64,000 nt of DNA from Thermodesulfobacteriota bacterium (GTDB lineage Bacteria > Desulfobacterota > Desulfobulbia > Desulfobulbales > SURF-16): positions 340 through 64,339 of the forward strand of contig JBMONN010000007.1 in assembly GCA_049323935.1 (NCBI GenBank), read 5' to 3'. Of the stretch, positions 14,941 through 47,045 are shown piece after piece. Position 1 is the stretch's first letter. Every line of letters begins with the position of its first letter. The notes beneath the pieces were generated by a model, which was given only the letters and a program-made list of their open reading frames with translations, ran no database searches and had not been told where the DNA came from. Position numbers and translations under genes: made by a program.

Positions 14941-15013
14941 GTGTTTTCCTTATAGAGCTATGCCTGTATTCTTCAGCAAGCGGCCGCTGGCCGCTTGCCG
15001 CCAGATAATCACG

Positions 15014-16525: not shown

Positions 16526-16583
16526 TATCCTCTGTTCACTCTATTATTCTTGTAATACCCATGAAAAATTCTTTTCGTCATCA

Positions 16584-20102: not shown

Positions 20103-20116
20103 GATTTTCCTCGATG

Positions 20117-20967: not shown

Positions 20968-21530
20968 CAGCTTTGTTCCTCCGCAGATTCTTTCTTGGCC
21001 GCCTGCTTCTTTTCCGCAGCGGCTTTCTTGGCTGCCTCCTTCTTTTCCTCCTCCTGCCTCAGGAGCTCCGGATCAACCTTGGGCTCAGGCACCCCTTCTG
21101 GATGGAGCCGTTGCAGGAGATCGAAGGTAAAATCCTCCCGACGGGTGCTGGCCAGGTTATAGTCCTTGGAAAAGGTGATAGCCTCGGGCTTGCAGTTATC
21201 GACACACTGGCCGCAGAGACTGCAGGTGGTGAAATTGAGTATATAGGCGGTCACCACCTTGCCCTTGACCCCGGGGCGTTTTTCCGACTTCACCGTGATG
21301 CAGCCGGACGGGCAGCCCTTTTCACACATACCGCAGGCAATGCAACGATGGGTGCCGGTCTTTTCATCCTTGACCATCTCGATGTGCCCCCGGTAGCGGG
21401 GAGTCATCTTCAGCGCTTCGTGGGGATACTGCAGGGTGATCGGTTTTTTAACAAATTCTTTAATGGTGATGTTCAGGCCGATCACCAGACTCTTGGTCCC
21501 GTTCAGCAAATCTCTAAAGTACCCGGACAT
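20967..21530 (-). CDS. nuoI: Complex I subunit I (2x[4Fe-4S] ferredoxin-like) with a Lys/Ala/Glu-rich C-terminal tail
   Basis: The track ORF extends to 21734. I place the start at the ATG at 21530 (MSGYFRDLLNGTKS...), 2 nt after the nuoH stop. Cluster motifs CIACGMCEKGCP and CSLCGQCVDNCP. Tail is ...EEEKKEAAKKAAAEKKQAAKKESAEEQS. Confidence 0.88.
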   Translation of the reverse strand: MSGYFRDLLNGTKSLVIGLNITIKEFVKKPITLQYPHEALKMTPRYRGHIEMVKDEKTGTHRCIACGMCEKGCPSGCITVKSEKRPGVKGKVVTAYILNFTTCSLCGQCVDNCKPEAITFSKDYNLASTRREDFTFDLLQRLHPEGVPEPKVDPELLRQEEEKKEAAKKAAAEKKQAAKKESAEEQS

Positions 21531-21532
21531 AA

Positions 21533-22516: not shown

Positions 22517-22527
22517 AATGTTTCTCC

Positions 22528-23649
22528 TTACCGGTCCATCTCCGGGATAACGAGATCAAGGCTTCCCATGAAGGCCAGCGCATCGGCAAGCAGCATGCCC
22601 CTGCTCGCCTCCTCGAACAGGCTGAGATTGGAGAAGGTGGGCGACCTGATCTTCATCCGGTATGCCTGATTGGTGCCGTCGCTGACCGCACGCATGGCGT
22701 AGGTGCCGCGAGCCGCCTCAACGGCGAAGTAGAAGTCGCCCTTCGGCGGTTTCAATGCCTTAGGCACCTTTTCCGCCATCACCGGTCCCTGTGGCAACTT
22801 GTTCAGGGCCTGCTCGATAATGCGCATGGACTGCATGATCTCATCCATCCGCACCATATACCGGGCCATGGAGTCGCATTCGGTATAGACCGGCACATCA
22901 AAGTCAAATTCCGGATACACACTGTAGGGTTCGTTCTTGCGGACATCAAAATTGACGCCGGAACCGCGCAGGACCGGGCCGCTGGCACCGTATTTCCGAC
23001 ACATCTCGGCGGAGACCGGGCCAATGCCGATAAGTCGCTCCATCAGAATGACGTTGCCGGTGACCAGATCGTGATACATGGGCATGCGGGCGCGAAGCCG
23101 CTTGATAAAGGCATGGGTGCCGGTAACGAAATCATCGTCGATATCGTTATAAACACCGCCGAAACGAAAATAACAGTAAGTGAGCCGCGATCCGGTGACC
23201 GATTCCAGCAGGTCGAGGATGATCTCCCGATCGTCAAAGGCGTAGAGAAGCGGGGTGAAGCCGCCGAGGTCGAGAACAAAGGCGCCGAACCAGAGAAGAT
23301 GGCTCTGGATGCGGTTGAGTTCCACGGTGATGACCCGGATGTATTCGGCCCGCTCCGGCACCTCGATACCCATGGCCCGCTCGACCAGACCGGCATAGCC
23401 GTGGTTGTAAGCCATGGCGGAAAGATAATCCATCCTGCCGAGATTGGGCCAGAACTGGTTCCAGGTGCGATTCTCACCCATTTTTTCATGCATGCGGTGG
23501 ATATAACCGAGCACCGGTTCCGCATTGACCACATACTCGCCATCCATGGTCAGCTTGACGCGGAGAACACCGTGGGTGGCAGGATGCTGCGGCCCCAGGT
23601 TCAGCTCGAAGGTCTCATACAGCTGGCTTTGGGCAAATGAACGGCTCAT
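22528..23649 (-). CDS. nuoD: Complex I subunit D (49-kDa/NiFe large-subunit-like)
   Basis: 373 aa. LNLGPQHPATHGVLR near the N-terminus. ATGA overlap with nuoC. Only 11 nt separate it from nuoH. Confidence 0.93.
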   Translation of the reverse strand: MSRSFAQSQLYETFELNLGPQHPATHGVLRVKLTMDGEYVVNAEPVLGYIHRMHEKMGENRTWNQFWPNLGRMDYLSAMAYNHGYAGLVERAMGIEVPERAEYIRVITVELNRIQSHLLWFGAFVLDLGGFTPLLYAFDDREIILDLLESVTGSRLTYCYFRFGGVYNDIDDDFVTGTHAFIKRLRARMPMYHDLVTGNVILMERLIGIGPVSAEMCRKYGASGPVLRGSGVNFDVRKNEPYSVYPEFDFDVPVYTECDSMARYMVRMDEIMQSMRIIEQALNKLPQGPVMAEKVPKALKPPKGDFYFAVEAARGTYAMRAVSDGTNQAYRMKIRSPTFSNLSLFEEASRGMLLADALAFMGSLDLVIPEMDR

Positions 23650-24239
23650 GGCTTATAATCCTTGCGTAATGGATAAAAATCCGCGTCATCGGGCAGGAGA
23701 AAACGTTCCAGTTGCGGGTGGCCGACAAAATTGATACCGAGCAGATCCCAGGTTTCCCGCTCATGCCAGTTGGCGCCAGGGAAAATGGCGGAAACGGTGG
23801 GAACATCCGGTTTATCGCGGTCGATGCGGGTTCGGACAACAACGCGGAACTGGGCCGCGCCGGTATAACTGTAATCGTAGATCACCTCGAACTGCTTGTC
23901 ATTGATCCAGTCGACTCCGGTTACCGCTTCTATGGTCATCCCCTCGTCATCGAGAATGGATGCCGCTTCAACCACCTGGTCAGGGGCAACCTGAACATCA
24001 AGATGGGTTCCCCGCTTGGCGTATTCGGTAACCAGGAGACCGTTTTCCCGAGGCTTTTCCACTTCCTTCTTCTTGCCCTTGGCATCTGTTTCTTCCCCGC
24101 CAGCCGGCGTCTCGGCTTCCTGCGGCGGGGATGACTGACCGGCAAGCCCTTGAGCAGCCAGCTTCTCCAGTTCACGTTGTATCTTCGCTCGATCCATATT
24201 CAGTACCATGTGTTCGGCTGCGGCCCGGGGGGCGGGCAC
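23646..24239 (-). CDS. nuoC: Complex I subunit C (30-kDa) with a charged N-terminal extension
   Basis: 197-aa ORF with a GTG start; the true start is uncertain (ATGs at 24209 and 24197, none with a clear SD). Core motif FPGANWHERETWDLLGINFVGHP. The first roughly 60 aa are a Lys/Glu/Pro-rich extension. Confidence 0.85.
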   Translation of the reverse strand: MPAPRAAAEHMVLNMDRAKIQRELEKLAAQGLAGQSSPPQEAETPAGGEETDAKGKKKEVEKPRENGLLVTEYAKRGTHLDVQVAPDQVVEAASILDDEGMTIEAVTGVDWINDKQFEVIYDYSYTGAAQFRVVVRTRIDRDKPDVPTVSAIFPGANWHERETWDLLGINFVGHPQLERFLLPDDADFYPLRKDYKP

Positions 24240-24263
24240 ACGAAAAAAGGCTGCGGGTGGGTT

Positions 24264-24782
24264 TTATTCCGGCGTGACCCGCGGCCAGCGGCGTTTACCG
24301 GTCAGCTTTTCCTCCAGGGCAAGAATCCCCTCGATCAGGGCCTCGGGGCGAGGAGGACATCCGGGAATGTAAACATCCACCGGCAGAAAGCTGTCCGCCC
24401 CCTCGACGACATTGTACTGCCCCTCGAAGACAAAGGGGCCGCCGGATATCGCACAGTTGCCCATGGCAATGACCCATTTGGGTTCCGGCATCTGATCATA
24501 GAGGGTCTTGACCGCAGGCAGCATTTTCTTGTTTACCGTACCGGCAACAATCATGACATCGGCCTGGCGCGGGGACGGACGAAAAACCTCGGCTCCGAAA
24601 CGGGCAAGATCAAAGCGGGAGGCGCCGGCCGCCATCATTTCAATGGCACAGCAGGCAAGACCGAAGGTCATGGGCCACAGCGAGTTGGCCCGGCACAGAT
24701 TGCGCAGTTTATCAAACTGGGCAAACTGGACTAACGCAGATGGTATGTTTTCCGTTCCCACTTGAACACTCCCTTTTTCCAT
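24264..24782 (-). CDS. nuoB: Complex I subunit B (N2 cluster subunit)
   Basis: 172 aa with cluster cysteines in [19 protein letters not shown] and [11 protein letters not shown]. The annotated start overlaps the nuoA 3' end by 52 nt, so the exact start is uncertain. Confidence 0.9.
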
Positions 24783-25135
24783 GCGTAAACGATCGCCAGG
24801 GACAGGATCCCGACAAAAATAACGATCTCAACAAAATCTCGGATGCCCAATGTGGCATCGTTGTAGGCCATGACGACCGGAAACAGAAAGAGGACATCCA
24901 CGTCAAAGGCCAGAAAGATCAAGGCATAAAGGTAATAGACGATGCCATAGCGAATCCAGGCGTCGCCAATGGGTTCCATGCCGCATTCAATCGGTTTGCC
25001 GGTTCTGTTGGCGACATTGCGGGTGGTACGTGGGGCGAAGAGGTAGGCGATAATGATGGGGCCGAAGCCGAAGGCGAGTCCGCAGAGGAGAAAGGCGGCG
25101 ACATAGAGGAGATCCAAGAGAGATTGCTGTTCCAC
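24731..25135 (-). CDS. nuoA: Complex I subunit A
   Basis: The track ORF runs to 25255. I place the start at the GTG at 25135 ([15 protein letters not shown]...), preceded by AAGGAG at 7-nt spacing, giving 134 aa. NuoA signature KPIECGMEP...[19 protein letters not shown]. Confidence 0.8.
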
Positions 25136-25282
25136 GAAGTTGCTCCTTTGCCCGTCCGCGCACAACAGCGGACGACACGCAAATGCCGGGCGCACGTCCC
25201 TGCATCGTAAATTTAGTGGATCTGGCCAGCACGGCCGACTCTTTTGGTCGTACACAACAGAAATGTTGCATACTTCCAGCCG

Positions 25283-26964: not shown

Positions 26965-27152
26965 GAACGAACGGACCGCAGCACCGTCCTGTAGACCTGC
27001 TCAAAGGTTTCATCGAAATTGGCAGGCGACAGACGGCCGACCTCGATGAATTTGACGACGATCTCTTTGGTCACCTTGAGAATCGCCTCATCGGTAACTG
27101 ACTTGGTGCAATTTTTCTGAAGAGGTTCAGCGGGATTCTGAGTCAAGGACAT
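26961..27152 (-). CDS. Small hypothetical protein (63 aa) translationally coupled to mpl
   Basis: The track ORF starts at 27206. The internal ATG at 27152 gives MSLTQNPAEPLQKNCTKSVTDEAILKVTKEIVVKFIEVGRLSPANFDETFEQVYRTVLRSVRS. Its stop overlaps the mpl start (ATGA). No family recognised. Confidence 0.4.
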   Translation of the reverse strand: MSLTQNPAEPLQKNCTKSVTDEAILKVTKEIVVKFIEVGRLSPANFDETFEQVYRTVLRSVRS

Positions 27153-27359
27153 GAGGATGATCACCCAAGAAAAACAAAAAAGCCCCTGCGGCGGAAAGAA
27201 GGCCAATTCTTGATGCCGGCAGAGGCTTTTTCTTCACTATGAGGAAAAACTTGCGAAAAGCCCTCCCTGAATGAAGAAGATATCCAGGTTTATGAAAATT
27301 TTCAGGACGCGTTGCGACCGTTGCGGATTCCTGAGCCGGATAAGAATTAATTGATGGAG

Positions 27360-27435
<76 letters not shown>

Positions 27436-27456
27436 GTCATTCTGCGAATGCGCCCC

Positions 27457-27485
27457 ATATAATCGAAAGACCGGCACCATGTCAA
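27457..27485 (-). promoter_or_regulatory. Sigma70-type promoter candidate for tRNA-Ala
   Basis: On the minus strand, TTGACA (27485-27480), a 17-nt spacer, then TTATAT (27462-27457). The -10 ends 21 nt upstream of the tRNA 5' end. Confidence 0.5.
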
Positions 27486-27665
27486 GTTTTTTTTCCTTGA
27501 CATCATCGCGCCACAGCAGGCTCCTCTTTTCTTTCAACCGGCGGTTGCCCGTTCCGTTGTCGAAAAAAAATCAAGACCACGCCGCTATCACGATTCGCTT
27601 TGCCCTGAGCTACGAAGTGACACAGAAGTTTTTTTTGAGAAAGCTGGCAACACCCGGCAATTCTC

Positions 27666-34667: not shown

Positions 34668-35648
34668 TCATTCCAGCCATTGCCGGGCACGGGCGGCCTC
34701 CAATACCAGGTTCTTCAATCCGGTAATGAAGGTGGGCATGACATTGAGTGACTCGGTGCGGGCAAGCTCCATCCCGAGTCCGGCCGCCAGCTCGCGGTAC
34801 TCGATGTCGATTTCATAGAGCGTTTCCACATGATCGGAGACAAAGCTGAGCGGGACCAACAGCACCTGCCTGCACCCGAGACCGGCCACCTCCCGCAGGG
34901 TATCCGGGGTCGACGGCGCCAACCACTCTACCGGGCCACTACGGCTCTGAAAGCAGAGGGTACCCGCCACACCGGTCAGCTTTTCCACTGCCCCGATGGT
35001 CTCTTGCAGATGTTCGAGATAGGGATCCCCTTCCCGGATAAAGGAGACCGGCAGGCTATGGGCGCTGTAGAGGAGACGGACCTCCTTGCCGGCGAATTGC
35101 TCCATACCGCGGACAATGGTGTCGGCCAGACAGCGGACATAGTCGGGCTGCTCCGGCCAGGCTGCGATCTCGGCGATATCGAAACCGGGCGAAAAGGAGG
35201 CGGCGACCCGCCGGAGGTCGTCTAGTGACGAACCGGTGGTGGCCTTGGAGTAGTGCGGGTAGAGGGTAAGCGCCACCAGCCGGCTGATCCCGGCGGCCGC
35301 CATGCTCCTGAGGGTCTCGTCGGCAAAGGGATGCCAGTAACGCATGGCCATGTCCACCGTGAAGGCGCCATAAGGGACAAGATCATGGGCCAGCGCCGCT
35401 CCCTGCTCGCGGGTCAGCCTGTTCAGTGGGGAGCCGCCGCCGATCAGTTTATAGGCCCTGCTGCTCTTGGGGGCGCGGCGTTTGGCGATCATCCAGGCAA
35501 TGGGCTTTTGCAGGAAGGGGGGACCAAGGCGGATGATCTTGCGGTCCGAAAAGAGGTTGTAGAGAAAGGGCCGGACATCGGCAAGACGCTCCGGTCCGCC
35601 GAGATTCAGGAGAATGACGCCGATGGGCGTCCCGGCGCCTTTTTTCAT
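34668..35648 (-). CDS. hemH: Ferrochelatase (protoporphyrin or coproporphyrin type not resolvable by eye)
   Basis: 326 aa. N-terminus GVILLNLGGPERLADVRPFLYNLFSD and SAHSLP, ferrochelatase signatures. Confidence 0.88.
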   Translation of the reverse strand: MKKGAGTPIGVILLNLGGPERLADVRPFLYNLFSDRKIIRLGPPFLQKPIAWMIAKRRAPKSSRAYKLIGGGSPLNRLTREQGAALAHDLVPYGAFTVDMAMRYWHPFADETLRSMAAAGISRLVALTLYPHYSKATTGSSLDDLRRVAASFSPGFDIAEIAAWPEQPDYVRCLADTIVRGMEQFAGKEVRLLYSAHSLPVSFIREGDPYLEHLQETIGAVEKLTGVAGTLCFQSRSGPVEWLAPSTPDTLREVAGLGCRQVLLVPLSFVSDHVETLYEIDIEYRELAAGLGMELARTESLNVMPTFITGLKNLVLEAARARQWLE

Positions 35649-36205
35649 ACCTTCCCCTCCGCGCCCGACCGGAGCAGGTCGGCCACCTCGCCAGGCGCAA
35701 AATCGAGATAGCTAAATATCCGCTTTTCCATGGCCATGCACTTGTGAAAATTTTTCATGATCGAGGCATGGCGGGTCGCATCATTACGACCATACCGCTC
35801 CAGGATATAAGCCAGCCGGTCGTGCAGGCTGACCACCCGGTCGTGGTTGACCCGCTTGTCGGCGTAATAGACGATCTCCTTTTCGCTGATCGGGTCGTGC
35901 CCGTTGGAGCTGATCAGCACATGCTCGGCAACAATGGCGGCAATCTCACTGTAGCCGTGGCGCCGACAGATCTCCTCTCCCATCCTGGCGTGATCGCAGC
36001 GGCTTTCCAGGCAGGGGGTCTTGGCAATGTCGTGGAGCAGGGAGGCGGCTACCACCAGCTCGATGTTGATTGCCTCACCCCGGCGGACAAATCCGCTGGC
36101 AATGAGCTCCGCCACCCGGGCAACCACCCTGGAATGCTCGCGGATGTTGTCGAGCATTGCGTACTCGTCCATCAACCGCAGACAGGTTTCAACCGTGGGA
36201 ATCAT
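35645..36205 (-). CDS. HD superfamily phosphohydrolase (YqeK-like size)
   Basis: 186 aa. HD motif SLLHDIAKTP with an upstream EHSRVVARVA. Its stop overlaps the hemH start (ATGA). Confidence 0.72.
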   Translation of the reverse strand: MIPTVETCLRLMDEYAMLDNIREHSRVVARVAELIASGFVRRGEAINIELVVAASLLHDIAKTPCLESRCDHARMGEEICRRHGYSEIAAIVAEHVLISSNGHDPISEKEIVYYADKRVNHDRVVSLHDRLAYILERYGRNDATRHASIMKNFHKCMAMEKRIFSYLDFAPGEVADLLRSGAEGKV

Positions 36206-36231
36206 GATGGTCTCGTAAAAACCCGCAAATT

Positions 36232-36312
36232 ATGGCAGGCGGGAAAATGAAAACAACGAGTCACAAAACACGACCAGTCGGAATCGTGGTTTTTTTTACG
36301 ATTCCGACAATC
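36232..36312 (+). repeat. Copy 1 of a roughly 78-nt intergenic repeat (A-rich leader plus hairpin)
   Basis: ATGGCAGGCGGGAAAATGAAAACAACGAGTCACAAAACACGACCAGTCGGAATCGTGGTTTTTTTTACGATTCCGACAATC, with a perfect 11-bp stem GTCGGAATCGT/ACGATTCCGAC. Fills most of the hemE-HD spacer, in the orientation opposite to both genes. Confidence 0.8.
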
Positions 36313-36328
36313 ATGACAGACCATTTAT

Positions 36329-37357
36329 TTAACGGGCCGACAGCCGGTGGACGGCCTCCACGACAAATTTCGCCTTCTCCGGCGGCGTCTCGGGCAGAAT
36401 CCCATGCCCCAGGTTGAAGATGTGGCCCTTGGCCCCTTTCCCCCCTGCCAGAATACGGGCAATGCGCTGTTCCAGTTTGTCTTCGGGCAGCAGCAGGGCG
36501 CAGGGATCGAGATTGCCCTGCACCGCGATATCCGGGCCGAAAACCTTCACCGCATCGGCGATATCCACCCGCCAGTCGAGCCCCTGGACATCGGCGCCGC
36601 AGGTTTTGCTCAGCTCCATCAGGGTGGCGCCGTTGTTGGCGAAATAGATGAGCGGCACCCCGGCCGGTTTGAGGGCGGTGATGATCTGTTTGACATAGGG
36701 CAGGGCGAACTCCTCGAAATCACAGGGAGCCAGTGCCCCGGCCCAGGAGTCAAAGATCTGCAGGGCCTGGGCCCCGGCGGCAACCTGGGCCTGCAGATAG
36801 CTGATCACCGATTCCGTCACCTTTTCCACCATCGCCTTATAGAGTTCCGGGGCGGCGTACATCATTTTCTTGGTCTGGAAAAAACTCTTCGAGGAGCCGC
36901 CCTCGACCATGTAAGTCGCCAGGGTAAAGGGCGCGCCGCAGAAGCCGATAAGCGGCACCTTCTGGGCCAACTCCCGCCGGAGAATACGGATGGTTTCCAT
37001 CACATAGCCAAGGGCATCTTCCGGGTCGGGGACAATGAGCCGATCCACATCCTGTTTGCTGCGGATCGGCTGCGGCAGCACCGGCCCCTGTTTTTCCCTG
37101 AATTCGAGGGGCATGCCCATGGCGTCCAGGGTAACGAGAATATCGGAAAAGAGAATCGCCGCATCAACCCCGAGGATATCCACCGGCTGCAGGGTAACCT
37201 CGGCGGCCAGTTCCGGGGTCTTGCACAGTTCCAGAAAGGTCACCTTGCCGCGCACCTTGTGATAATCGGGCAGATAACGGCCGGCCTGACGCATGATCCA
37301 GATGGGGGTGTGGCTGACCGCTTCGCCTCTGCATGCCTTGAGAAAATTGGTGTTCAT
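36329..37357 (-). CDS. hemE: Uroporphyrinogen decarboxylase
   Basis: 342 aa. N-terminus PIWIMRQAGRYLPDY and the downstream GAPFTLATYMVEGG are HemE signatures. Confidence 0.93.
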   Translation of the reverse strand: MNTNFLKACRGEAVSHTPIWIMRQAGRYLPDYHKVRGKVTFLELCKTPELAAEVTLQPVDILGVDAAILFSDILVTLDAMGMPLEFREKQGPVLPQPIRSKQDVDRLIVPDPEDALGYVMETIRILRRELAQKVPLIGFCGAPFTLATYMVEGGSSKSFFQTKKMMYAAPELYKAMVEKVTESVISYLQAQVAAGAQALQIFDSWAGALAPCDFEEFALPYVKQIITALKPAGVPLIYFANNGATLMELSKTCGADVQGLDWRVDIADAVKVFGPDIAVQGNLDPCALLLPEDKLEQRIARILAGGKGAKGHIFNLGHGILPETPPEKAKFVVEAVHRLSAR

Positions 37358-37388
37358 TCGTTTTTCCTTGGGTAATTGTGATAAGCCG

Positions 37389-38453
37389 TTACATCTTTTT
37401 CAGTTTCACCGGCATATGGGAGCAGAAGGGCTCCTCCGCCATGTAATCGCCGGTCATGGCATAGGCCCGGGCTCGGCAGCCGCCGCAGACCGAAACATAT
37501 TCGCAGGAGCCGCAGCGGCCCTTGTATGCCTTGAAATCACGCATATCCTGAAACAGCTTCGAGTTTTCCCAGATATCCTTGAATGACTGCTGACGGATAT
37601 TGCCGGCACTCATGGGAAAATAGCTGCACGGCAGGACGTTACCGTCCACATCGATCAGGCAGATGAGCTGGCCGGCCAGACAGCCCTTGGAGCCGCCGGT
37701 GGAGAATTTGAGACTGCGCCGCTGGAAATCATCACCGCTCTCCTTTTTCTTCTGGAGGACGATCCGGTAGTAACTGGGGGCGCAGGTGGGCCGCACCAGA
37801 ATGTCGTCTTCCTGCCGTTCCATGTCATAGTGCCATTCCAGCACCCTTTCATAATCCTCCATGGAAACCAGCTCCTCCATGATCTCCTCGCCGCGGCCGG
37901 TGGGCACGATCATGAACATGTACCAGGCAGTGGCTCCCAGTTCCTTGGCCAGTTTGTATATCTTCGGGATCTCCTCCTGATTCCGTTTGGTGAAGGAGGA
38001 GTTGATAAGAAAGGAGATGTCATGTTTTTTAAACAGGGCCGCTGCATTGAGGGTGCCGGCAAAAGCGCCGGGCTGATTACGAAAATTGTCATGGACCGCG
38101 GCAGAGGCGCCGTCAAGGCTTAAAGAGACCATCTTGATGCCCGCTTCCTTGATTTTGCCGCAGGTCGCCTCCGTTACCAGAGTACCGTTGGTTGCCAGAC
38201 ACATACGCAATCCCTTGCCGGTGCCGTAGGCGGCGATGTCAAAGACATCATGGCGCAGCAGCGGCTCGCCACCGGACAGCACCACAACGGGGTTAGCATA
38301 GGAAACGATGTCGTCGAGCACCCGGGTGGCCTCGGCAAAGGAAAAATCCGGATGCCCAGCCACCTCAAGCTCGGAGGAGGAACGGCAGTGAACGCATTTG
38401 AGATTGCACCGCCGGGTGATCTCCCAGGCGATCCATTTTGGTTCGAATTTCAT
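37389..38453 (-). CDS. Radical SAM/SPASM enzyme, AhbC/AhbD/NirJ-like
   Basis: 354 aa. [14 protein letters not shown] radical SAM cluster, GGEPLL, and a C-terminal Cys-rich SPASM region (CLAG...LPCSYF...[20 protein letters not shown]). Confidence 0.8.
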
Positions 38454-38506: not shown

Positions 38507-39829
38507 CTACAGATAATCAGCCGCCACCGCCGCCAGAGGACTGCGCTCGCTCTTGCGCAGGGTGATGTGACCGTGGATCGGCAATTCCTTGAGACGCTCC
38601 ACCGTGTATGTCAACCCGTTACTGCTGGAATCGAGATAGGGGTTGTCGATCTGGTAGGGATCGCCGGTCAACACCATCTTCGTTCCCTCACCGGCCCGGC
38701 TGATGATGGTTTTGATCTCATGGGGGGTCAAGTTCTGTGCCTCATCGACAATGACGTACTGACCGGAGATGGAGCGGCCGCGTATGTAGGTCAGGGCTTC
38801 CATCTCCACCACATGATCCCGCAGCAGCTTGTCCGTCTTGTGGCGGAGGGAATCGTCATTCTCCTTGTTTTTCGGTCCCTGTCCGACACCCATGAGAAAG
38901 GTAAGGTTGTCGAAAATCGGCTGCATCCAGTGGGCCAGTTTCTCATCCTTGTCACCCGGCATGTAGCCGAGATCCTTACCCAGGGGAATGATGGGCCGGG
39001 AGACGAGAATCTTGCTGTAGCGCTTGTTGATCAACACCTCCTCGAGGCCGGCGGCCAGGGCGAGCAGGGTCTTACCGGTGCCCGCCTGGCCGACCAGGGT
39101 AACTATTTGGACATTCGGGTCGAGCAAAAGTTCCAGACACATCCGCTGTTCCTTGCTGCGGGAACGGATCTGCCAGGCGCTGTCATACTGAGGGTTAAGT
39201 CGCACCAGCCGCATTTCGTTTACCGCCCTGGCCAGGGCGGTATGCTTGGGGTCGGCCTCATCCTGTAACAAAATGAATTCATTGGGCACCAGACCGAGGC
39301 CCTCGCTTTCCACCTCGCGTCGGTCATAAAAGGTATTGATCAGCTCGCCCGGCACCGTCAATTCACGGTAACCGGAAAAAAGCTCATCGAAGTTGATCTT
39401 CTGCTTTTCAAAGTCCATGACCTCTATGCCCAGGGCGTCAGCCTTGAGGCGGGCGTTGATGTCCTTGGAAACGAAGATGACCCTTTCTCCTTTCTTGAAG
39501 ATGGTATAGGCCACCGCCAGGATGCGGTTGTCCGGAACCTTCATGTTGAGTCCGGGACAGCAGGCTATCTCATCGCCCTCGGGATAGATGAGCAGGATGC
39601 CGCCGTTTTCCATTTCCACGCCTTTGGCCAGCTTGCCCCGACAACGGAGATGGTCGAGCTCCCTGATCACCCGGCGGGCGTTACGGCCCAGCTCGTCACT
39701 CCGGGACTTGAATTTGTCGAGTTCCTCGATGACCGACATGGGCAGCACGACATAGTTATCGGAAAAGGAGAAAATGGAATCAGCGTTATGGAGGAGAACG
39801 TTGGTGTCGAGGACAAAATATTTTCGCAT
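38507..39829 (-). CDS. PIN-domain/PhoH-like ATPase (YlaK type)
   Basis: The track ORF starts at 40000. The ATG at 39829 ([15 protein letters not shown]...) gives a PIN N-terminus. Walker A is [11 protein letters not shown], followed by a PhoH C-terminal core. Confidence 0.85.
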
Positions 39830-40066
39830 GCAGCGGCTCGTAACGAAATTCGGAGTTAAGGGGCGAAAACGGTCAGGAGTAACGGCCGTGCCATGCCGCA
39901 GCGCCGGACTGTCATGTGTTGCGGTGGCCGACCTCAAGGTCGGCATTGTTCCAAGAGTAGTATGAAACCCCCTGTTCCCGCAAGCAAAACTTACCGACAC
40001 CAGCGCATTCGGCCTGCCGCTGTCCGCCCTTCCCGGAAAATTGATGCGGCAGGAGAACGCGTATTG

Positions 40067-40075
40067 TGCTATAGA
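40067..40075 (+). promoter_or_regulatory. Extended -10 element (TGcTATAGA) 8 nt before the nadE ATG; possible leaderless or very short-leader transcript
   Basis: TG at 40067-40068 and TATAGA at 40070-40075. The nadE ATG is at 40084 and has no recognisable SD. Pattern match only. Confidence 0.3.
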
Positions 40076-40083
40076 TACGGGCC

Positions 40084-41721
40084 ATGAAGATCGCCCTGAT
40101 CCAGATCAACCCTGTTATCGGAGACTTTCCGGCCAACAGTGCCCGCATCCGCCACTTTCTTGACCAGGCCAGACAGGCAGAGTGTGCCTTGGCCGTTCTG
40201 CCGGAACTTGCCCTGAGCGGCTACCCTCCCCAGGATTATCTTGAACACTCGGCATTTCTCGCGGCCCATGACCAGGCCCTGTCCGAACTGATCCGGGATA
40301 CCGTCGGCATTGCCGTCATCTGTGGCGCCATCACCCGGCACAGCGGCACCACCGGCAAAGCACTGCACAACAGCGCCCTGCTGTTCGCCGACGGGCGCCT
40401 CCTTTTTGCCGCCCACAAGAGGCTGCTGCCGACCTACGATGTTTTTGACGAGTCCCGTCACTTCGAGCCGGGTGCGAGCTCCGCCCCCTTTACCTATCAC
40501 GGACTACGCCTCGGGCTCACCATCTGCGAGGATATCTTCAACGAAGACGACAGCGTTCCCCGCCCTCTGTATGCGGCAAACCCCCTGGCCGATCTCGCCG
40601 CCGGCGGCATTGATCTGCTTATCAATATCGCCGCCTCGCCCTTTACCATTGGCAAACAGTCCCGCCGCTTCGCTCTTTTTTCCCAGCTCTGCCGTAAATA
40701 TTGCACCCCTCTTTGCTATGTCAATCAGGTGGGCGGCCAGGACGGCGTCCTTTTTGACGGCGCAAGCATGGTAATTGACAACAGGGGCCGCCTTTGCCGC
40801 CATGCCCGCTCCTGTGGAGAAGACCTGCTGGTCGTTGACACCACCACTCTCCAGCCGATGCCGCCCCCGCCGACCGACGAAGAGACTGATCTGGTGCTCG
40901 CGGCGCTGGCCATGGGCTGTCGTGATTATGTCAGAAAATGCGGTTTCTCCCGGGTACTCCTTGGCCTGAGCGGCGGCATCGATTCCGCCCTGACCGCTGC
41001 CGTTGCCGTGCACGCCCTTGGCCGGGAAAATGTCATGGGGGTCGCCCTGCCTTCGCCTTATACCGCGCCGGAAAGCATCGAGGATGGCCGCCGGCTCGCC
41101 GACAATCTCGGTATCCGCTTTGCCGTCGTCCCCATCACCGATGCCTTTGCCTCCCTGCGCAGCGCCCTTGCCCCGCTCTTTGCCGATCGTCCGGAGGATC
41201 TCACCGAACAGAATCTCCAGGCCCGCATCCGCGGTACCCTGCTGATGGCCATGGCCAACAAGTTCGGCGCCCTGCTGCTCTCCACCGGCAACAAATCAGA
41301 GATGGCGGTGGGCTACTGCACCCTGTATGGCGACATGGCCGGGGCCCTCGCCCCGCTCGCCGATGTACCGAAGCAGCTTGTCTACGAACTGGCCCGCCAT
41401 GTCAACCGGCAAGGCGAAATCATCCCGGCTCGCACCCTCTGGCGCCCTCCCACCGCCGAACTGGCCCCGAACCAGACGGACCAGGACGACCTGCCTCCCT
41501 ACGAGGTGCTCGACCCGATTCTCCAGGCCTATCTGGAAGATCACCTCTCCCTGGAGGAGATCGTTGCCCGTGGCTTTGCTCGAACCATGGTCGAGGACAT
41601 TATCCGCCGGATCAAAAAAAATGAATACAAGCGCCATCAGGCCGCCATGGGACTGAAAATCACCTCCAAGGCCTTCGGTTCCGGTCGTCGCTATCCGGTG
41701 GCGCAGAACTTCCGGGAATGA
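40084..41721 (+). CDS. nadE: Glutamine-dependent NAD+ synthetase
   Basis: 545 aa. N-terminal CN-hydrolase domain (LPELALSGYPPQD, ICEDIF) and C-terminal NAD synthase domain with the SGGIDS PP-loop. Confidence 0.92.
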   Translation: MKIALIQINPVIGDFPANSARIRHFLDQARQAECALAVLPELALSGYPPQDYLEHSAFLAAHDQALSELIRDTVGIAVICGAITRHSGTTGKALHNSALLFADGRLLFAAHKRLLPTYDVFDESRHFEPGASSAPFTYHGLRLGLTICEDIFNEDDSVPRPLYAANPLADLAAGGIDLLINIAASPFTIGKQSRRFALFSQLCRKYCTPLCYVNQVGGQDGVLFDGASMVIDNRGRLCRHARSCGEDLLVVDTTTLQPMPPPPTDEETDLVLAALAMGCRDYVRKCGFSRVLLGLSGGIDSALTAAVAVHALGRENVMGVALPSPYTAPESIEDGRRLADNLGIRFAVVPITDAFASLRSALAPLFADRPEDLTEQNLQARIRGTLLMAMANKFGALLLSTGNKSEMAVGYCTLYGDMAGALAPLADVPKQLVYELARHVNRQGEIIPARTLWRPPTAELAPNQTDQDDLPPYEVLDPILQAYLEDHLSLEEIVARGFARTMVEDIIRRIKKNEYKRHQAAMGLKITSKAFGSGRRYPVAQNFRE

Positions 41722-41722
41722 C

Positions 41723-43519
41723 ATGAAGCCCCGCCTTGCTCTCCTCTTTATGCTGCTCTGCGTCCTTTTTCTCGTGATCCGGGAAAATCTGACCAAACGG
41801 CCCGAGCGTCTCCACCAGACCAGCGCCGGCCAGGTGGAGATGTGCCTGGAGTGCCACAAAACCGAACAACTCGATCCCGCCCATGACCGGTTGGTGATGG
41901 GCTGCTCTCCCTGCCATCTCGGTGACGCCCTGGCCATTGACAAGGACAGGGCGCACACAGCCATGGTCAAAAACCCAGGCGACCTGCGGGTGGTGGAAAA
42001 AACCTGCGGGGTGGAGGGCTGCCATGCGCCGGACGTGAAAAAGGTCAAAAATTCGCTGATGGCCACCAACCGTGGCATCCTTGCCACCCTCCTCTACTAC
42101 TGGGGCGAGGCGCCGGACCAGAACGGCGATTTTTCGGTGGAACAGCTGCTGGCCAGCAACCAGACCTCCCTGGCCATCGACTACTACCGAAAACTTTGCG
42201 CCACCTGCCACCTCTGGAAACAGAAAGGCGACCTGCCCGGTTTCTTCGGGGAAAAGGGCGGCGGCTGCACGGCCTGCCACTTTGTCAAGGACGGCAACCT
42301 CACTGCCGAGCAGGCGAAAAAGGTACATCCGCGCATCGTCAAACAGGTGCCGGTGAGCAACTGTGTCCGCTGCCACAACCGCAGTGGTCGCATCGGCATC
42401 TCCTATACCGGCGTCTATGAGTCGGAAAACTACGGCACCCCCTACACCAAGGGCGGCATGTCGGAAAAACGGCTGCCCGGCGACCGCTATTATCTCAGCC
42501 TGCCCGCTGATATCCACCACCAGAAAGGCATGGCCTGTATCGACTGCCACACGAGAAACGAGATCATGGGCGACGGCACCCGTTACGCCCATTACGAAAA
42601 CCAGCTTGAAATCACCTGCAAAACCTGTCATGTTCCGGCTGGCGAGACGACGAACGAACCTGGCTTGACCCGCAAAGGCGATAAACTAACAAACATCGTT
42701 GGCGACGAGGCGGGCTGGCAGCTGACCAACAAGCTCACAGCCGACAAAAAGCACCCCATCCGACCGCCCAAGGCCGGGATCTGCGACTTTGCCGGCCACA
42801 AGCGGGTCGGCTGCGAGGCCTGCCATTCCGGCTGGGTGCCGCAGTGTTACGGCTGCCACGTCAAGCAGGACAAAAGGGAAACCGATCTCGACAAACTGAC
42901 CTTGACCGAAACGCCGGGCTGGTGGATTGAGGGTCGCTCCTCTCTCCGGTACGAACGGCCGATGCTGGCCGTCTGGGCTGACGAGGTGGTGATCGTCACC
43001 CCCGGCTGCCAGGACATCGTCTCGGTGGTCAACGCCCAAGGCAAAGCGGAGCAACACTTCAACAGCCTGACCATGGCCGCCATCAACCCACACACCACCC
43101 AGACCAGGGGACGAAGCTGCGCTGACTGCCACCAGTCGCCGAAAACCATTGGTCTCGGCGAGGGCACCATCTGGCGGGAAGCGGGCGAGTGGCGTTTCAA
43201 TGCCGCGGCCCAAGGGCTTGTCACCGCGGCAGGCGTCACCCCGCCGCTTGACGCCTATGTCGCCATTGACGGGACCCCCTTACAGAAATCGGCCCGGCCC
43301 GATCTGCGGCCCTTCAACAAAGAGGAACTGGCCCGCATCCTCCGTGTCGGCCTCTGCATCGACTGCCACAAGGAGTACTCGGACCCGGCTTACCGCACCT
43401 ATACGCCGGCAACAACATGCCCGGTCTATCGGGAAGAGAAAGATGGTGGGCCGGCACCCCAGAAGAATCCCGCCATTACCGCCACGGAAAAAAAACCGGC
43501 GCTGGAGAAAAAACCATGA
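41723..43519 (+). CDS. Multiheme c-type cytochrome (11 CxxCH plus 1 CxxxxCH) with an N-terminal signal/anchor
   Basis: 598 aa. Hydrophobic N-terminus MKPRLALLFMLLCVLFLVI. Heme motifs in order: CLECH, CSPCH, CGVEGCH, CATCH, CTACH, CVRCH, CIDCH, CKTCH, CEACH, CYGCH, CADCH, CIDCH. Starts 1 nt after the nadE stop, and its stop overlaps the hisD ATG. Confidence 0.85.
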   Translation: MKPRLALLFMLLCVLFLVIRENLTKRPERLHQTSAGQVEMCLECHKTEQLDPAHDRLVMGCSPCHLGDALAIDKDRAHTAMVKNPGDLRVVEKTCGVEGCHAPDVKKVKNSLMATNRGILATLLYYWGEAPDQNGDFSVEQLLASNQTSLAIDYYRKLCATCHLWKQKGDLPGFFGEKGGGCTACHFVKDGNLTAEQAKKVHPRIVKQVPVSNCVRCHNRSGRIGISYTGVYESENYGTPYTKGGMSEKRLPGDRYYLSLPADIHHQKGMACIDCHTRNEIMGDGTRYAHYENQLEITCKTCHVPAGETTNEPGLTRKGDKLTNIVGDEAGWQLTNKLTADKKHPIRPPKAGICDFAGHKRVGCEACHSGWVPQCYGCHVKQDKRETDLDKLTLTETPGWWIEGRSSLRYERPMLAVWADEVVIVTPGCQDIVSVVNAQGKAEQHFNSLTMAAINPHTTQTRGRSCADCHQSPKTIGLGEGTIWREAGEWRFNAAAQGLVTAAGVTPPLDAYVAIDGTPLQKSARPDLRPFNKEELARILRVGLCIDCHKEYSDPAYRTYTPATTCPVYREEKDGGPAPQKNPAITATEKKPALEKKP

Positions 43520-44829
43520 TTATCACCCCCTATTCCACTGCATCGAAACAGGGCAAGGAACTGCTGGCCCGACTGGCCAACCGTTTTCAACTGGCCGACA
43601 CTTCCTGCCGCCAGGCGGTGGCGGATATTCTCACCGCGATCCGCCAGGGCGGCGATCAGGCCCTGCTCGATTACACCCGCCGCTTTGACGCACCGGACAT
43701 GACCAGTGACCAGCTTCGGGTCTCCGAGGCCGAACTGGTCGAGGCCTATTCACAGGTCGATGCAGACTTGCTGGCCAGCATCCGCCTGGCCAAAAAGAGA
43801 ATCGACGATTTTCATCAACGGGAGATGGAACATTCCTGGTTCATGACCCGGGAGGACGGCACCATCACCGGCCGCCTGGTCCGCCCGGTGGAGGCGGCCG
43901 GTCTCTATGTGCCCGGCGGCCGCGGCGGCACCACCCCCCTCGTCTCCTCGGTGCTGATGAACGGGATCCCGGCCGCCATCGCCGGGGTCGAGCAAAGGGT
44001 GATGGTCACCCCACCCAATGCACAAGGCAAGGTCAATCCGGCGCTCCTGGTGGCGGCCCAGGAAACCGGTATCCGCGAGATCTACAAGGTTGGCTCCGCC
44101 TGGGCCATCGCCGCCCTGGCCTTTGGCACCGATACCATTCCGGCGGTTGATGTCATTGTCGGACCTGGCAACCAGTATGTGGCCGAGGCAAAGCGCCAGG
44201 TGGCGGGCAGGGTGCGGATCGATATGCTTGCCGGCCCGAGCGAGGTGCTGATCATCGCCGATCAGACCGCCACACCGGCCTTCATCGCCGCCGACATGCT
44301 GGCCCAGGCCGAACACGACCCACAGGCCCTCGCCCTGCTCATCACCACCAGCGCCGATATTGCCGACCGGACAGTGGCGGAACTGGAGCGTCAACTGCCT
44401 CTCCTTGACCGACAAGATATCGCCCGCACCTCCCTTAATGACCGCGGCGCCATTCTGATCTGCGATTCGCTTGCCGAGGCGCTGACCATGGCCAACAGGA
44501 TCGCCATCGAACATCTGGAGCTGATGGTGGCCGATCCCTTTGCCTGCCTGCCGACCATCCGGCACGCCGGCGCCATCTTCCTCGGCGATTACTCGCCGGA
44601 GGCATGCGGCGACTATGTCGCCGGTCCCAACCATGTCCTGCCCACCATGGGCACGGCGCGCATCTCCTCGGCGCTCGGAGTGGAGACCTTCCTGAAGAAG
44701 AGCAGCATCATCTCCTGTTCGAGGCGCGCCTTTGCCGCCGACGCTCCCCACATCGTCAACCTGGCCCGGCTGGAAGGATTGACCGCCCATGCCCGCTCGG
44801 TGAGCGTGCGTCTCGAACAAAAAAAATGA
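43516..44829 (+). CDS. hisD: Histidinol dehydrogenase
   Basis: The track ORF starts at 43417. The ATG at 43516 (MIITPYSTASKQ...) is the ATGA-coupled start. HisD signatures are present (GPGNQYVAEAKR, AQAEHD). Confidence 0.93.
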   Translation: MIITPYSTASKQGKELLARLANRFQLADTSCRQAVADILTAIRQGGDQALLDYTRRFDAPDMTSDQLRVSEAELVEAYSQVDADLLASIRLAKKRIDDFHQREMEHSWFMTREDGTITGRLVRPVEAAGLYVPGGRGGTTPLVSSVLMNGIPAAIAGVEQRVMVTPPNAQGKVNPALLVAAQETGIREIYKVGSAWAIAALAFGTDTIPAVDVIVGPGNQYVAEAKRQVAGRVRIDMLAGPSEVLIIADQTATPAFIAADMLAQAEHDPQALALLITTSADIADRTVAELERQLPLLDRQDIARTSLNDRGAILICDSLAEALTMANRIAIEHLELMVADPFACLPTIRHAGAIFLGDYSPEACGDYVAGPNHVLPTMGTARISSALGVETFLKKSSIISCSRRAFAADAPHIVNLARLEGLTAHARSVSVRLEQKK

Positions 44830-45485
44830 CGGGCCCTCAGAGCAGTGACCTGTTCCGGCAGGGGTGCGCCGCCCTCGGCCTCTCCCTGGAAACGCCGGCC
44901 ATCGCACGACTCGACCGTTACCTCAGCGAATTGCGGCGCTGGAACACCAAAATGAATCTGGTTGCCGATGCCCCGCTGCAGGAGATGATTGACTGCCACT
45001 TTCTCGATTCTCTCACCCTGCTGCCTCATCTCGACCCGGGCAGTCACCCCGTTTTACTCGATGTCGGCACCGGCGCCGGCTTTCCAGGTCTGGCGCTGAA
45101 ATGCGCCGCACCCTCCCTCGCCCTGACCCTGGTCGAACCGCGGGAGAAACGGGTGATTTTTCTCCGCCACATCGTCCGCCAGCTCGACCTTGCCGGGGTA
45201 GAGATCGTTCCCCGCCGCCTGGAGAAAAAAAACACGGAAAATATCCTCTATCCGCTCATCACCAGCCGGGCGGTTGCCAATGTCGCCGAATTTCTTGATC
45301 TGGTCGCCGCCTGGTGTCCCAGCAGCGGCACCGTCATCTGCATGAAAGGTCCCCGGGCTGACGAGGAGATTGCCCAATGGCAGACCACTGCCTCATCGAG
45401 TCCTTTTTTCCTGCGAAACAGCATTTCTCTGGGCCTGCCATTCAGCGGCTCCAGACGCACCCTGCTGTTTTTTACAAAAATTTAA
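44826..45485 (+). CDS. rsmG: 16S rRNA (guanine527-N7)-methyltransferase
   Basis: The track ORF starts at 44604. The ATG at 44826 overlaps the hisD stop (ATGA). WNTKMNLV and the SAM-binding DVGTGAGFPGL motif. Confidence 0.85.
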   Translation: MTGPQSSDLFRQGCAALGLSLETPAIARLDRYLSELRRWNTKMNLVADAPLQEMIDCHFLDSLTLLPHLDPGSHPVLLDVGTGAGFPGLALKCAAPSLALTLVEPREKRVIFLRHIVRQLDLAGVEIVPRRLEKKNTENILYPLITSRAVANVAEFLDLVAAWCPSSGTVICMKGPRADEEIAQWQTTASSSPFFLRNSISLGLPFSGSRRTLLFFTKI

Positions 45486-45526
45486 CCAGCCGGTAACAAT
45501 TATTTCATCGCACCCGGAAAGAAATC

Positions 45527-45633: not shown

Positions 45634-46776
45634 ATGATTACCGGCAACCTCTTTTTTCTTTATGCGGCAAATTTCATTCTCGGCCTGATGGCGGGATTCT
45701 TCATGCACCGCTCGGATTACTGCGTTGCCGGCATGTTCCGTGATATCTTTCTGTTCCGCCGCGCCACCATGCTCCGTTTTCTTTTTCTTCAGATCATCGT
45801 CACCATGGTGTTTTTCGAACTGGCCAGGAGAGCCGGATTGCTGTCTCTCTACCCTTTCCCGTTGCTCGGACCGCCAACCCTGACCGCCTTGGCCGGCGGA
45901 TTTCTCTTTGGTATCGGCATGGTGCTGGCTGGGGGCTGTGTCGTCGGCACCCTCTACCGAATCGGCGCCGGCAACGTCCTGAGCATAGTGGCATTGGTCG
46001 GCATCCTGGCCGGCAGCGCCCTCTACGCCGAAATGCACCCCTGGTGGTCCCGCCTGGCCAAAAACGCGATCCTTACCCGTGATGCCATTACCCTGCCGCA
46101 ACTGCTTGGTCTCTCGCCCACCATTCTCATCGGCTTGATCACGGTGCCGGCCATTCTGCTCTTTCTCCACTGGCGCCGCCGCAACCTGTGGCGCCGGTCT
46201 TCAGTCGCAGACGGCTATATCCAGCCAGGGCAGACCGCTCTGGTCCTGGCTGGCATTAGTCTCCTCTCCTATCTACTGAACGGCATGCCCATCGGAGTGA
46301 CCACGACCTACGCCAAAATGGCCGCCATGATCGAGCATATCATCGCGCCGGATCATGTCGATCACTCCGCCTATTTTTCCGCCCGCTCCCTCGATATCAT
46401 TCATCCGGACAGCGGGGCACACCTTGCCGGTAGCGGCGGTCCGTACCTCGACACCATCTGGGCCATCCAGTTTCCGGTCATTGCCGGCATCGTCCTCGGC
46501 AGCCTGCTGTCGGCACTGCATCTTCGCGAACTCACCCTGCGCACCCGCCTGCCGAGTCGCCAATACGCCATGGTTCTGGCTGGCGGCCTGCTGCTCGGGC
46601 TGGCCTCCCGCATGGCCTCCGGCTGCAACATCTGGCATCTGATGGGCGGATTGCCCATTCTTGCCCTGCAGAGCCTCCTTTTCCTGGCCGGACTCCTGCC
46701 CGGCTGCTGGCTCGGCAGCTCGATTCTCGCCCGTGCCCTTTCCCAGCGACCCCTTTCCTCCATGAGTGCGCCATGA
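45634..46776 (+). CDS. yeeE: YeeE/YedE family sulfur-compound (thiosulfate-type) transporter
   Basis: 380-aa polytopic protein with family-typical conserved cysteines in re-entrant segments (DYCVAGMFRD, GGCVVGTLYR, SGCNIWHLMGG). Confidence 0.8.
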   Translation: MITGNLFFLYAANFILGLMAGFFMHRSDYCVAGMFRDIFLFRRATMLRFLFLQIIVTMVFFELARRAGLLSLYPFPLLGPPTLTALAGGFLFGIGMVLAGGCVVGTLYRIGAGNVLSIVALVGILAGSALYAEMHPWWSRLAKNAILTRDAITLPQLLGLSPTILIGLITVPAILLFLHWRRRNLWRRSSVADGYIQPGQTALVLAGISLLSYLLNGMPIGVTTTYAKMAAMIEHIIAPDHVDHSAYFSARSLDIIHPDSGAHLAGSGGPYLDTIWAIQFPVIAGIVLGSLLSALHLRELTLRTRLPSRQYAMVLAGGLLLGLASRMASGCNIWHLMGGLPILALQSLLFLAGLLPGCWLGSSILARALSQRPLSSMSAP

Positions 46777-47045
46777 GCGAAAAACAGCAGCACATCATTG
46801 CCATCGACATGCGGGGCCAGGTGTGTCCGGCCTGCCTGCTGGTGGCCATGGACAGTATGAACAAAAACCGCAATGCCCTGCAAAACGGTTCAGCCAGACT
46901 CTGCATCACAACCGACAATCGGGAGGCAATCACCACCATCCCCTCCACGGCCCGCAACATGGGCTATTCGACCAGAGTGATGAAAAAAGCGAGCTTCTAC
47001 GAAATCTGCATCGGCATCATTTCGCCCGAAGGCGTGGAGCCATGA
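46773..47045 (+). CDS. TusA/YeeD-like sulfurtransferase
   Basis: 90 aa. IAIDMRGQVCPACLL corresponds to the TusA D-x-x-G-x-x-CP active-site region. ATGA overlaps on both sides. Confidence 0.7.
   Translation: MSEKQQHIIAIDMRGQVCPACLLVAMDSMNKNRNALQNGSARLCITTDNREAITTIPSTARNMGYSTRVMKKASFYEICIGIISPEGVEP

Follow-up and report, generated by a model that had tools for sequence, protein, structure and literature searches.

An ExtM-like twelve-haem cytochrome coupled to nadE in Desulfobulbia as a candidate haem-chain subunit of a Rieske/cytochrome b menaquinol oxidoreductase

We analysed a stretch of 64,000 nt from a Thermodesulfobacteriota bacterium (contig JBMONN010000007.1; hereafter the window, to whose whole length all positions refer) that carries on its + strand, directly behind the NAD+ synthetase gene nadE, a gene for a twelve-haem c-type cytochrome. 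Based on sequence comparison, the encoded protein is a full-length homologue of the Geobacter ExtM (GSU2935, Cbc6) family. We propose, with a probability of about 0.5, that it serves as the haem-chain (cytochrome c) subunit of a Rieske/cytochrome b menaquinol oxidoreductase encoded elsewhere and is made constitutively by way of nadE. A twelve-haem chain, tethered by one helix on the periplasmic side of the cytoplasmic membrane, would pass electrons between a quinol-oxidising Rieske/cytochrome b module and periplasmic redox partners, in a direction set by metabolism. The Desulfobulbia gene would have departed from an ancestral Rieske-cytochrome b-ExtM-ExtN cluster and become translationally coupled to nadE, and this coupling would lead to constitutive production with the housekeeping transcript. 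The presence of a Rieske/cytochrome b partner in the source genome, its binding to the cytochrome, co-transcription and the direction of electron flow are what we infer here. The ExtM/Cbc6 family itself is known and was named without a demonstrated function; what is new is the Desulfobulbia form, which is detached from the Rieske/cytochrome b/ExtN cluster and joined to nadE.

Profile searches provided the family assignment. The best NCBIfam model was ExtM (NF040943; E 8.2e-89, 298.5 bits, in two stretches), giving a name to a protein that the original prediction, made from the sequence by eye, could not place in any named family. Ten further family representatives scored 211-338 bits against the same model, and residues 358-475 of the query cytochrome additionally matched the ExtN model. 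ExtM of G. sulfurreducens is a 12-haem, 68.3-kDa cytochrome of the extHIJKLMNOPQS cluster, which also holds the 10-haem ExtN, the Rieske protein ExtO and the cytochrome b ExtP, and it has been found in several Geobacter cell fractions (PMC5877670). The cluster is also called Cbc6 (cbcMNOPQR) and has been described as a 'bc complex'. The query and ExtM share 12 haem sites, a length of ~600 aa and homology over the full length, and each is among the few well-conserved cytochromes of its lineage. They differ in gene setting, ExtM being encoded by ExtN, ExtO, ExtP and ExtKL whereas the query gene stands with nadE, hisD and rsmG. Further, the query belongs to a separate Desulfobulbia clade with a clade-specific invariant Cys354, and its nearest outgroup cluster reaches at most 46% identity. 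An exhaustive search against 50%-identity representatives returned 1144 clusters at E <=0.001 and 256 at E <=1e-30; full-length homology and a shared motif order tie the query to fused and cytochrome b-adjacent members of this ExtM-like superfamily among the 256. Pfam class III c3/c7-type domains scored above their cut-offs (PF14537 28.6 against 25, PF14522 28.6 against 24.8 and PF02085 26.3 against 22.9 bits), which shows only generic c3/c7-like haem-binding segments and nothing more specific. The Geobacter inner-membrane proteins CbcL, CbcBA and ImcH have no detectable sequence relationship to the query, and their b-type domains are HydC/FdnI-like, not bc1/b6-like. Some database labels in this family deserve caution. 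The NCBIfam models NF040967 (ExtN, 415 positions) and NF040968 ('FeS_ExtO', 416 positions) match the same residues of every member with near-identical scores, and NF040968 seems to describe an ExtN-like multihaem protein and not a 14-kDa Rieske protein. The name 'amino acid ABC transporter substrate-binding protein', which many members of the query clade bear in NCBI records (homologues P0008, P0013, P0014, P0055, P0060, P0078, P0084 and P0101), is a propagated misannotation.

The proposed role follows the company that the twelve-haem module keeps in related proteins and loci. An N-terminal cytochrome b (PF00033/PF13631, NCBIfam ExtP-like) is present in 36 of the 150 best 50%-identity cluster representatives, in proteins of ~730-970 aa. 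In uncharacterised cytochrome b-ExtM fusions of ~900 aa from metagenomes (P0150, P0156), the 12-haem module is homologous to the query over its whole length; the query differs from them in being without the ExtP-like cytochrome b domain (~300 aa, seven to eight helices), and its anchor helix aligns with the final membrane helix of the fusions. A sister clade (the P0122 group, ~40-46% identical to the query) comes from metagenome-assembled genomes (MAGs) of other Desulfobacterota and of Nitrospinota. Its ExtM-like proteins share the query's juxtamembrane motif and its motif set, with Cys429 included. Seven sister-clade loci were sampled, and none of them showed nadE linkage. In two (L083 and L084) the Rieske, cytochrome b and ExtM-like genes follow one another in this order, with stop codons overlapping start codons, and the other five are 'orphans' with an ExtN-like paralogue next to them, beside dprA-topA. 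In MAG GCA_021737785.1 an orphan Rieske and cytochrome b pair lies on one contig and an orphan ExtM-like and ExtN-like pair on another (loci L085, JAIPDI010000024, and L088, JAIPDI010000023), the orphan cytochrome b belonging to the same cytochrome b family as above. The two halves of the module can thus be encoded apart. Fusion, adjacency and split loci are three independent links between the 12-haem module and a membrane module of the bc type. The original suggestion of periplasmic or extracellular electron transfer is too broad: the protein is a genuine multihaem c-type cytochrome, but its family is tied to inner-membrane Rieske/cytochrome b modules and not to outer-membrane conduits. Genes for a Psr-like molybdopterin oxidoreductase, a 4Fe-4S protein and NrfD lie directly upstream of the Rieske-cytochrome b-ExtM-like genes in the sister clade (L083 174-8001 and L084 1-6676); NrfD is fused to a multihaem domain in L083, and a rhodanese gene is also found in L084. 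These neighbours hint at a sulfur/polysulfide context for the family.

The features of the locus in the window are the following.
40001..40083, no strand: divergent intergenic region of 83 nt between phoH2 (-) and nadE (+), from the open reading frame (ORF) map
40084..41721, + strand: nadE, glutamine-dependent NAD+ synthetase, 545 aa (Pfam NAD_synthase 2.6e-76 and CN_hydrolase; NCBIfam NF010588 659 bits against a cut-off of 479)
41723..43519, + strand: ExtM-like dodecahaem c-type cytochrome, 598 aa (haem motifs, NCBIfam ExtM, homologues, AlphaFold2 (AF2) model)
41723..41803, + strand: predicted N-terminal signal-anchor helix (residues 1-23) and juxtamembrane motif (hydrophobicity, AF2, conservation)
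41843..43369, + strand: span of the 12 haem-attachment motifs, from motif positions
41843, 41903, 42005 (CxxxxCH), 42197, 42266, 42362, 42536, 42617, 42812, 42845, 43118 and 43355, + strand: first bases of the motifs
42680..43222, + strand: predicted beta-rich region, ~residues 320-500 (DSSP of the AF2 model)
43436..43516, + strand: Lys/Pro/Glu-rich tail, residues 572-598 (lineage comparison, omega, model confidence)
43516..44829, + strand: hisD, histidinol dehydrogenase, 437 aa from the ATG at 43516 (Pfam Histidinol_dh 1.5e-166)
44826..45485, + strand: rsmG (gidB), 16S rRNA m7G methyltransferase, 219 aa (Pfam GidB 1.4e-42)

The start at 41723 is the earliest available in the frame of the cytochrome. 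The predicted polypeptide has ~66 kDa, which twelve haems would bring to roughly 73 kDa. CxxCH and CxxxxCH are covalent haem c attachment sites, and CX4CH sites are known in Desulfovibrio cytochrome c3. The protein carries 11 CxxCH motifs and one CxxxxCH motif (CLECH41, CSPCH61, CGVEGCH95, CATCH159, CTACH182, CVRCH214, CIDCH272, CKTCH299, CEACH364, CYGCH375, CADCH466 and CIDCH545), with six residues between CEACH and CYGCH. Six-frame translation of the window gave 17 CxxCH motifs in total, and since 11 of these fall in this one ORF, against ~0.08 expected per 598 aa, the motif set is beyond chance; no other haem-rich ORF was found in the 64 kb. The nadE stop codon (TGA, 41719-41721) is followed by a single C and then by the cytochrome ATG (gap of +1 nt). 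ATGA overlaps of 4 nt join the cytochrome to hisD (43516-43519) and hisD to rsmG (44826-44829). The original prediction had read the 598-aa protein, its motif set with the close CEACH/CYGCH pair and the gene junctions in the same way, and the Pfam matches listed above agree with its naming of nadE, hisD and rsmG. Long antisense ORFs of up to 342 aa (41660-42631 -, 41296-42087 -, 36347-37375 + and others) were rejected as high-GC artefacts because all homology falls on the strand of the real genes (+ in the case of 41660..42631 -). Horizontal transfer of the cytochrome gene is unlikely, as its GC and GC3 agree with those of the neighbouring genes.

The coupling to nadE was then followed across related genomes. 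In a species-level scan (one genome per species) 419 genomes matched, and the best 80 were examined for loci and taxonomy. Among the 73 loci with enough upstream sequence, nadE is directly upstream on the same strand in 61, and the stop-to-start distance is at most 8 nt, often an overlap, in 47 of 64. Retention of the junctions was 59/71 for nadE and the cytochrome, 28/50 for PhoH and nadE, 24/67 for the cytochrome and hisD and 18/29 for hisD and rsmG. hisD is directly downstream of the cytochrome in 26 of 69 loci; elsewhere the downstream gene encodes an aminotransferase or is murA. The hisD overlap noted in the original prediction is thus real in the window and its gene order is found in a minority of loci. 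A class II 3-deoxy-D-arabino-heptulosonate 7-phosphate (DAHP) synthase gene replaces the upstream nadE in nine loci (labelled Desulfurivibrionaceae, Desulfobulbaceae or more broadly), with hisD(-rsmG) downstream in all eight of these that have downstream sequence. The cytochrome gene is always found among biosynthetic housekeeping genes, and its coupling to nadE is the conserved feature. Housekeeping embedding had been described as an unusual context; the embedding is real, yet across the Desulfobulbia clade as a whole this arrangement is the rule.

Expression together with a housekeeping gene, as had been suggested, is in good agreement with this conserved synteny. Scans for promoters (sigma-70 consensus), terminators and Rfam families covered 39.5-46 kb. 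No + strand promoter-like site was found between the four genes, and no terminator above chance (7 terminator-like sites against 5.7 expected), so that nothing in these scans separates nadE, the cytochrome and hisD; no Rfam family matched in this range. Co-transcription of nadE, the cytochrome gene, hisD and rsmG is the probable arrangement, judged from the gene junctions. The operon promoter presumably lies in 40001..40083, the sole non-coding stretch upstream of the four-gene block, in which the sigma-70 consensus scan returned no + strand site. A search of the literature for a link between Desulfobulbaceae, nadE and a cytochrome, or for a 12-haem Desulfobulbia protein, gave nothing relevant. 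That the nadE junction is kept above both the PhoH and the hisD junction, with spacing mostly at or below 8 nt, could be taken to mean that NAD synthesis and the cytochrome share a pathway or complex. Such a direct functional tie is highly implausible, since NadE is cytoplasmic and the cytochrome periplasmic, one subclade swaps nadE for the DAHP synthase gene while the cytochrome is kept, and the sister-clade genes are unlinked to nadE.

A word-indexed search found 1526 homologues, the best 120 of which are 61-95% identical to the query and 522-626 aa long. Of the 50%-identity clusters, one lies near the query (64% identity) and the next follows at 46%. The best 80 of the 419 matched species genomes are all Desulfobulbia (Desulfurivibrionaceae, Desulfobulbaceae, Desulfocapsaceae, Desulfogranum, Hydrosulfovibrio), and by these comparisons the query clade is a tight Desulfobulbia group of its own within the ExtM-like superfamily. 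The gene is carried by the cultured Desulfogranum marinum DSM 2058, D. mediterraneum DSM 13871 and Hydrosulfovibrio ferrireducens CB1MN. Multihaem cytochromes are usually fast-evolving and regulated by electron acceptors. When identities were compared over the same loci, the cytochrome averaged 68% against 60% for NadE (higher in 61 of 61 loci), 70% against 72% for HisD and 71% against 51% for RsmG. Omega between the window and locus L002, which is 95% identical, was 0.13 for the cytochrome core, 0.17 for nadE, 0.09 for hisD and 0.16 for rsmG. As estimated from these alignments, purifying selection on the gene is strong and the constraint is unusual for a multihaem cytochrome.

Kyte-Doolittle analysis gave a single hydrophobic segment in the cytochrome (residues 1-25), in line with the anchor or signal that had been predicted, and the AF2 model places a helix at residues 3-23. 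No AxA cleavage site or lipobox was found in the N-terminus, and C13 is not conserved. The juxtamembrane motif L17-x2-(R/K)20-E21-x4-R26-P27 is conserved in Desulfobulbia and in the sister clade, with or without an adjacent cytochrome b. Because it is kept in any context, we argue that the helix remains part of the mature protein and takes part in a conserved contact. The cytochrome is thus apparently held by one uncleaved N-terminal helix, facing the periplasm on the cytoplasmic membrane.

This anchoring bears on whether the protein could work like MtrA, MtrC or OmcA, either within a conduit for extracellular electron transfer or as a store of electrons in the periplasm. The many haems and the presence of ExtM in several Geobacter cell fractions are consistent with such a function, as is a match of residues 271-474, in one stretch, to the MtrC/MtrF domain II/IV (PF22113, 31.2 bits against a cut-off of 30), which is marginal and a typical multihaem cross-match. 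We consider it very unlikely: the inner-membrane anchor is conserved and apparently uncleaved, and the query is without the lipoprotein signal, the porin partner and the 10-haem four-domain layout of MtrC/OmcA. Further, in none of the examined loci does a gene for a porin or an outer-membrane cytochrome lie next to it, and the gene is spread across the examined Desulfobulbia loci in a housekeeping context.

An AF2 model built from an alignment of 93 sequences from the two clades reached a predicted local distance difference test (pLDDT) of 84 and a predicted template-modelling score of 0.81, while a first model from 36 close homologues had a pLDDT of 58. In the better model the beta-rich region, with a local pLDDT of mostly 85-95, includes a long beta hairpin (strands 371-390 and 395-411) that begins at the CEACH/CYGCH pair. 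Foldseek found no match in the PDB at E <=0.001 even with the pLDDT-84 model (best E 0.39), and the pLDDT-58 model likewise gave nothing; a phmmer search of PDB sequences returned chance-level matches alone (best E 0.077). Based on the Foldseek result, no solved fold relative can be named. Of the searches that the original prediction had recommended for classification, the profile comparison thus named ExtM, while the structure comparison yielded no PDB match.

All 12 haem motifs are invariant in the alignment of the 36 close sequences, and each is 93-100% conserved among 105 family representatives. Conservation extends to non-haem stretches, the invariant ones in the 36-sequence alignment including SLMATNRGI, RCHNRSGRIG and TPGCQD. 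Conserved His/Met candidates for distal ligands in the 105-member alignment are H54, H78, M113, H202, H265, M282, H359 and H457, that is 8 for 12 haems, a count that depends on the alignment. Invariance of Cys354 is limited to the Desulfobulbia clade; Cys429 is almost invariant there and in the sister clade. Enzyme-level conservation of this kind, the shortfall of family-wide ligands and the two cysteines would suit a catalytic multihaem enzyme, in which an open or Cys-coordinated haem would turn over a small sulfur or nitrogen compound (for example polysulfide, sulfite, thiosulfate or nitrite) with electrons supplied by the other haems. The Psr-like molybdoenzymes and the rhodanese next to sister-clade genes also fit such an activity, and ExtKL, the Geobacter neighbour of ExtM, has been reported to be a polysulfide reductase, MccSep, which has a Cys-ligated haem and is essential for sulfur respiration (bioRxiv 10.1101/2025.11.18.688581). 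We nevertheless regard an enzyme of this type as improbable, because the query has no significant match to NrfA, Otr, HAO or MccA-type NCBIfam models (best E 7e-4 to 0.03, below 20 bits against cut-offs of 166-690), PDB sequences gave only the chance-level hits mentioned above, there is no CxxCK motif, and the ligand count itself shifts with the alignment.

Several observations weigh against the assignment of the cytochrome as a subunit of a Rieske/cytochrome b complex. The ExtM match lies well below the equivalog cut-off of 800 bits. No cytochrome b or Rieske gene was found by tblastn in the 64-kb window or in ~1.2 Mb across 80 related Desulfobulbia loci, and a cytochrome b homologue search with cluster look-up gave no Desulfobulbia-labelled entries, its hits being without useful taxonomy. 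Sister-clade genes are followed by an ExtN-like paralogue of ~590 aa, whereas no such paralogue is adjacent to the query gene. The 8 conserved candidates for distal ligands of 12 haems may leave room for a catalytic haem, and the layout of a single helix followed by haems is shared with the self-sufficient quinol dehydrogenases NapC, CymA and NrfH.

The last of these similarities raises the possibility of a self-sufficient quinol dehydrogenase like CymA, NapC, NrfH or ImcH, in which the membrane-proximal haem oxidises menaquinol and the other eleven haems relay electrons to periplasmic acceptors without any cytochrome b. The first haem motif of the query follows the N-terminal helix by ~20 residues, the NapC/NirT family gives a weak match (Pfam PF03264, E 0.0012; NCBIfam E 0.022), and none of the 80 loci has a gene for cytochrome b or a Rieske protein close by, which fits such a protein. 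Geobacter ImcH provides a precedent of an inner-membrane oxidoreductase of cytochrome c only. The Pfam match is, however, below its cut-off (19.1 against 24.1 bits) and falls at residues 272-369, away from the membrane-proximal haem, so that the likeness to the NapC/NirT/CymA tetrahaem proteins is limited to the order of helix and haems. Relatives repeatedly fused or adjacent to cytochrome b suggest, moreover, that the haem module itself does not handle quinol, and a quinol dehydrogenase is in our view unlikely.

In the proposed Rieske/cytochrome b complex, the query would resemble cytochrome c1 and the multihaem c subunits of such complexes in its inferred role as a membrane-anchored c-type acceptor for the Rieske centre. 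It differs from them in carrying twelve haems instead of one, two or four and in having no sequence similarity to them. For cable bacteria, which belong to the Desulfobulbaceae, the literature describes no more than a 'partial complex III' of Rieske protein and cytochrome b without c1, and their ExtM and ExtN homologues have been reported 'in different genomic locations'. The supplements of the cable-bacteria paper have no ExtM entry, and the literature searched contained nothing that connects partial complex III with ExtM/ExtN homologues or mentions nadE linkage. Tentatively, and at less than even odds, the Desulfobulbia-wide ExtM-like protein could supply the cytochrome c subunit that is missing from the partial complex III of cable bacteria and their relatives. 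It would then form a constitutive electron gateway between menaquinone and periplasm that is coupled to nadE and not to a respiratory regulator.

The Lys/Pro/Glu-rich tail described in the original prediction is indeed present at the C-terminus, but outside the query it occurs only in relatives with 95-99% identity. The L003 protein ends with ...KEEE at a stop codon, and a spacer of ~80 nt with a Shine-Dalgarno sequence precedes hisD. In the lineage of the window this stop codon has been lost, translation continues through the spacer as far as the ATG of hisD, and the hisD Shine-Dalgarno sequence GGAG now codes for part of ...ALEKKP in the tail. Omega between the window and L002 is 1.26 over the 27 tail codons against 0.13 for the cytochrome core, and the tail has a pLDDT below 50. 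A functional extension was considered and rejected on the lineage comparison and omega. Judged from this comparison, the tail is best read as a recent, neutrally evolving read-through into the former spacer between cytochrome and hisD, and the overlap of the two genes as a derived, lineage-specific feature.

Other genes of the window were recorded as well. A haem-biosynthesis cluster (34668-38453, -) lies divergently upstream of nadE with PhoH2 (38507-40000) alone in between. It contains hemH (ferrochelatase), an HD-domain protein gene, hemE and a gene for an AhbD-like radical-SAM 'haem b synthase' (TIGR04545, 442 bits, cut-off 500); HemE, HemH and AhbD together suggest a hybrid haem route. 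The hemE-radical-SAM-PhoH block accompanies nadE and the cytochrome in 24-28 related loci. Right after rsmG, at 45634-47045 (+), the gene for a YeeE/TsuA-like transporter of sulfur (thiosulfate) and that for a TusA/YedF-like sulfurtransferase overlap, with a promoter-like site at 45471-45500; the next ORF, to 49261, resembles a sensor histidine kinase by eye only. A nuo operon (13519-25255, -) encodes NuoA, B, C, D, H, I, J and K and four antiporter-like subunits (PF00361) without nuoEFG. Its nuoH directly follows nuoD, and NuoI has a Lys/Glu/Ala-rich C-terminal tail. In the Desulfogranum loci L062 and L069, a nuoA-D-H operon begins ~2.7 kb downstream of the cytochrome. The window also holds genes for tRNA-Gly(CCC) (13249-13324, -) and tRNA-Ala(GGC) (27360-27435, -), and a 136-aa ORF at 27127-27537 is spurious, as it reads through the tRNA-Ala gene.

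In conclusion, conservation at the level of HisD across the class, together with the housekeeping operon, points to a core, always-on role of the cytochrome in the respiratory chain. Cable bacteria, sulfur disproportionators and sulfide oxidisers all belong to the Desulfobulbia, whose complex III is without the cytochrome c1 that would account for the passage of electrons out of and into the quinone pool. If present, the gateway proposed above would serve sulfur enzymes of the MccSep/PHC type and, in cable bacteria, the conductive fibres. Even if the partner model fails, the protein is a well-delimited, highly constrained orphan with twelve haems and without a solved structural relative. Fusion and adjacency make it a concrete, genetically testable candidate for the missing cytochrome c link, and if the partner model is true, the ExtM/Cbc6 family would gain a defined structural role.

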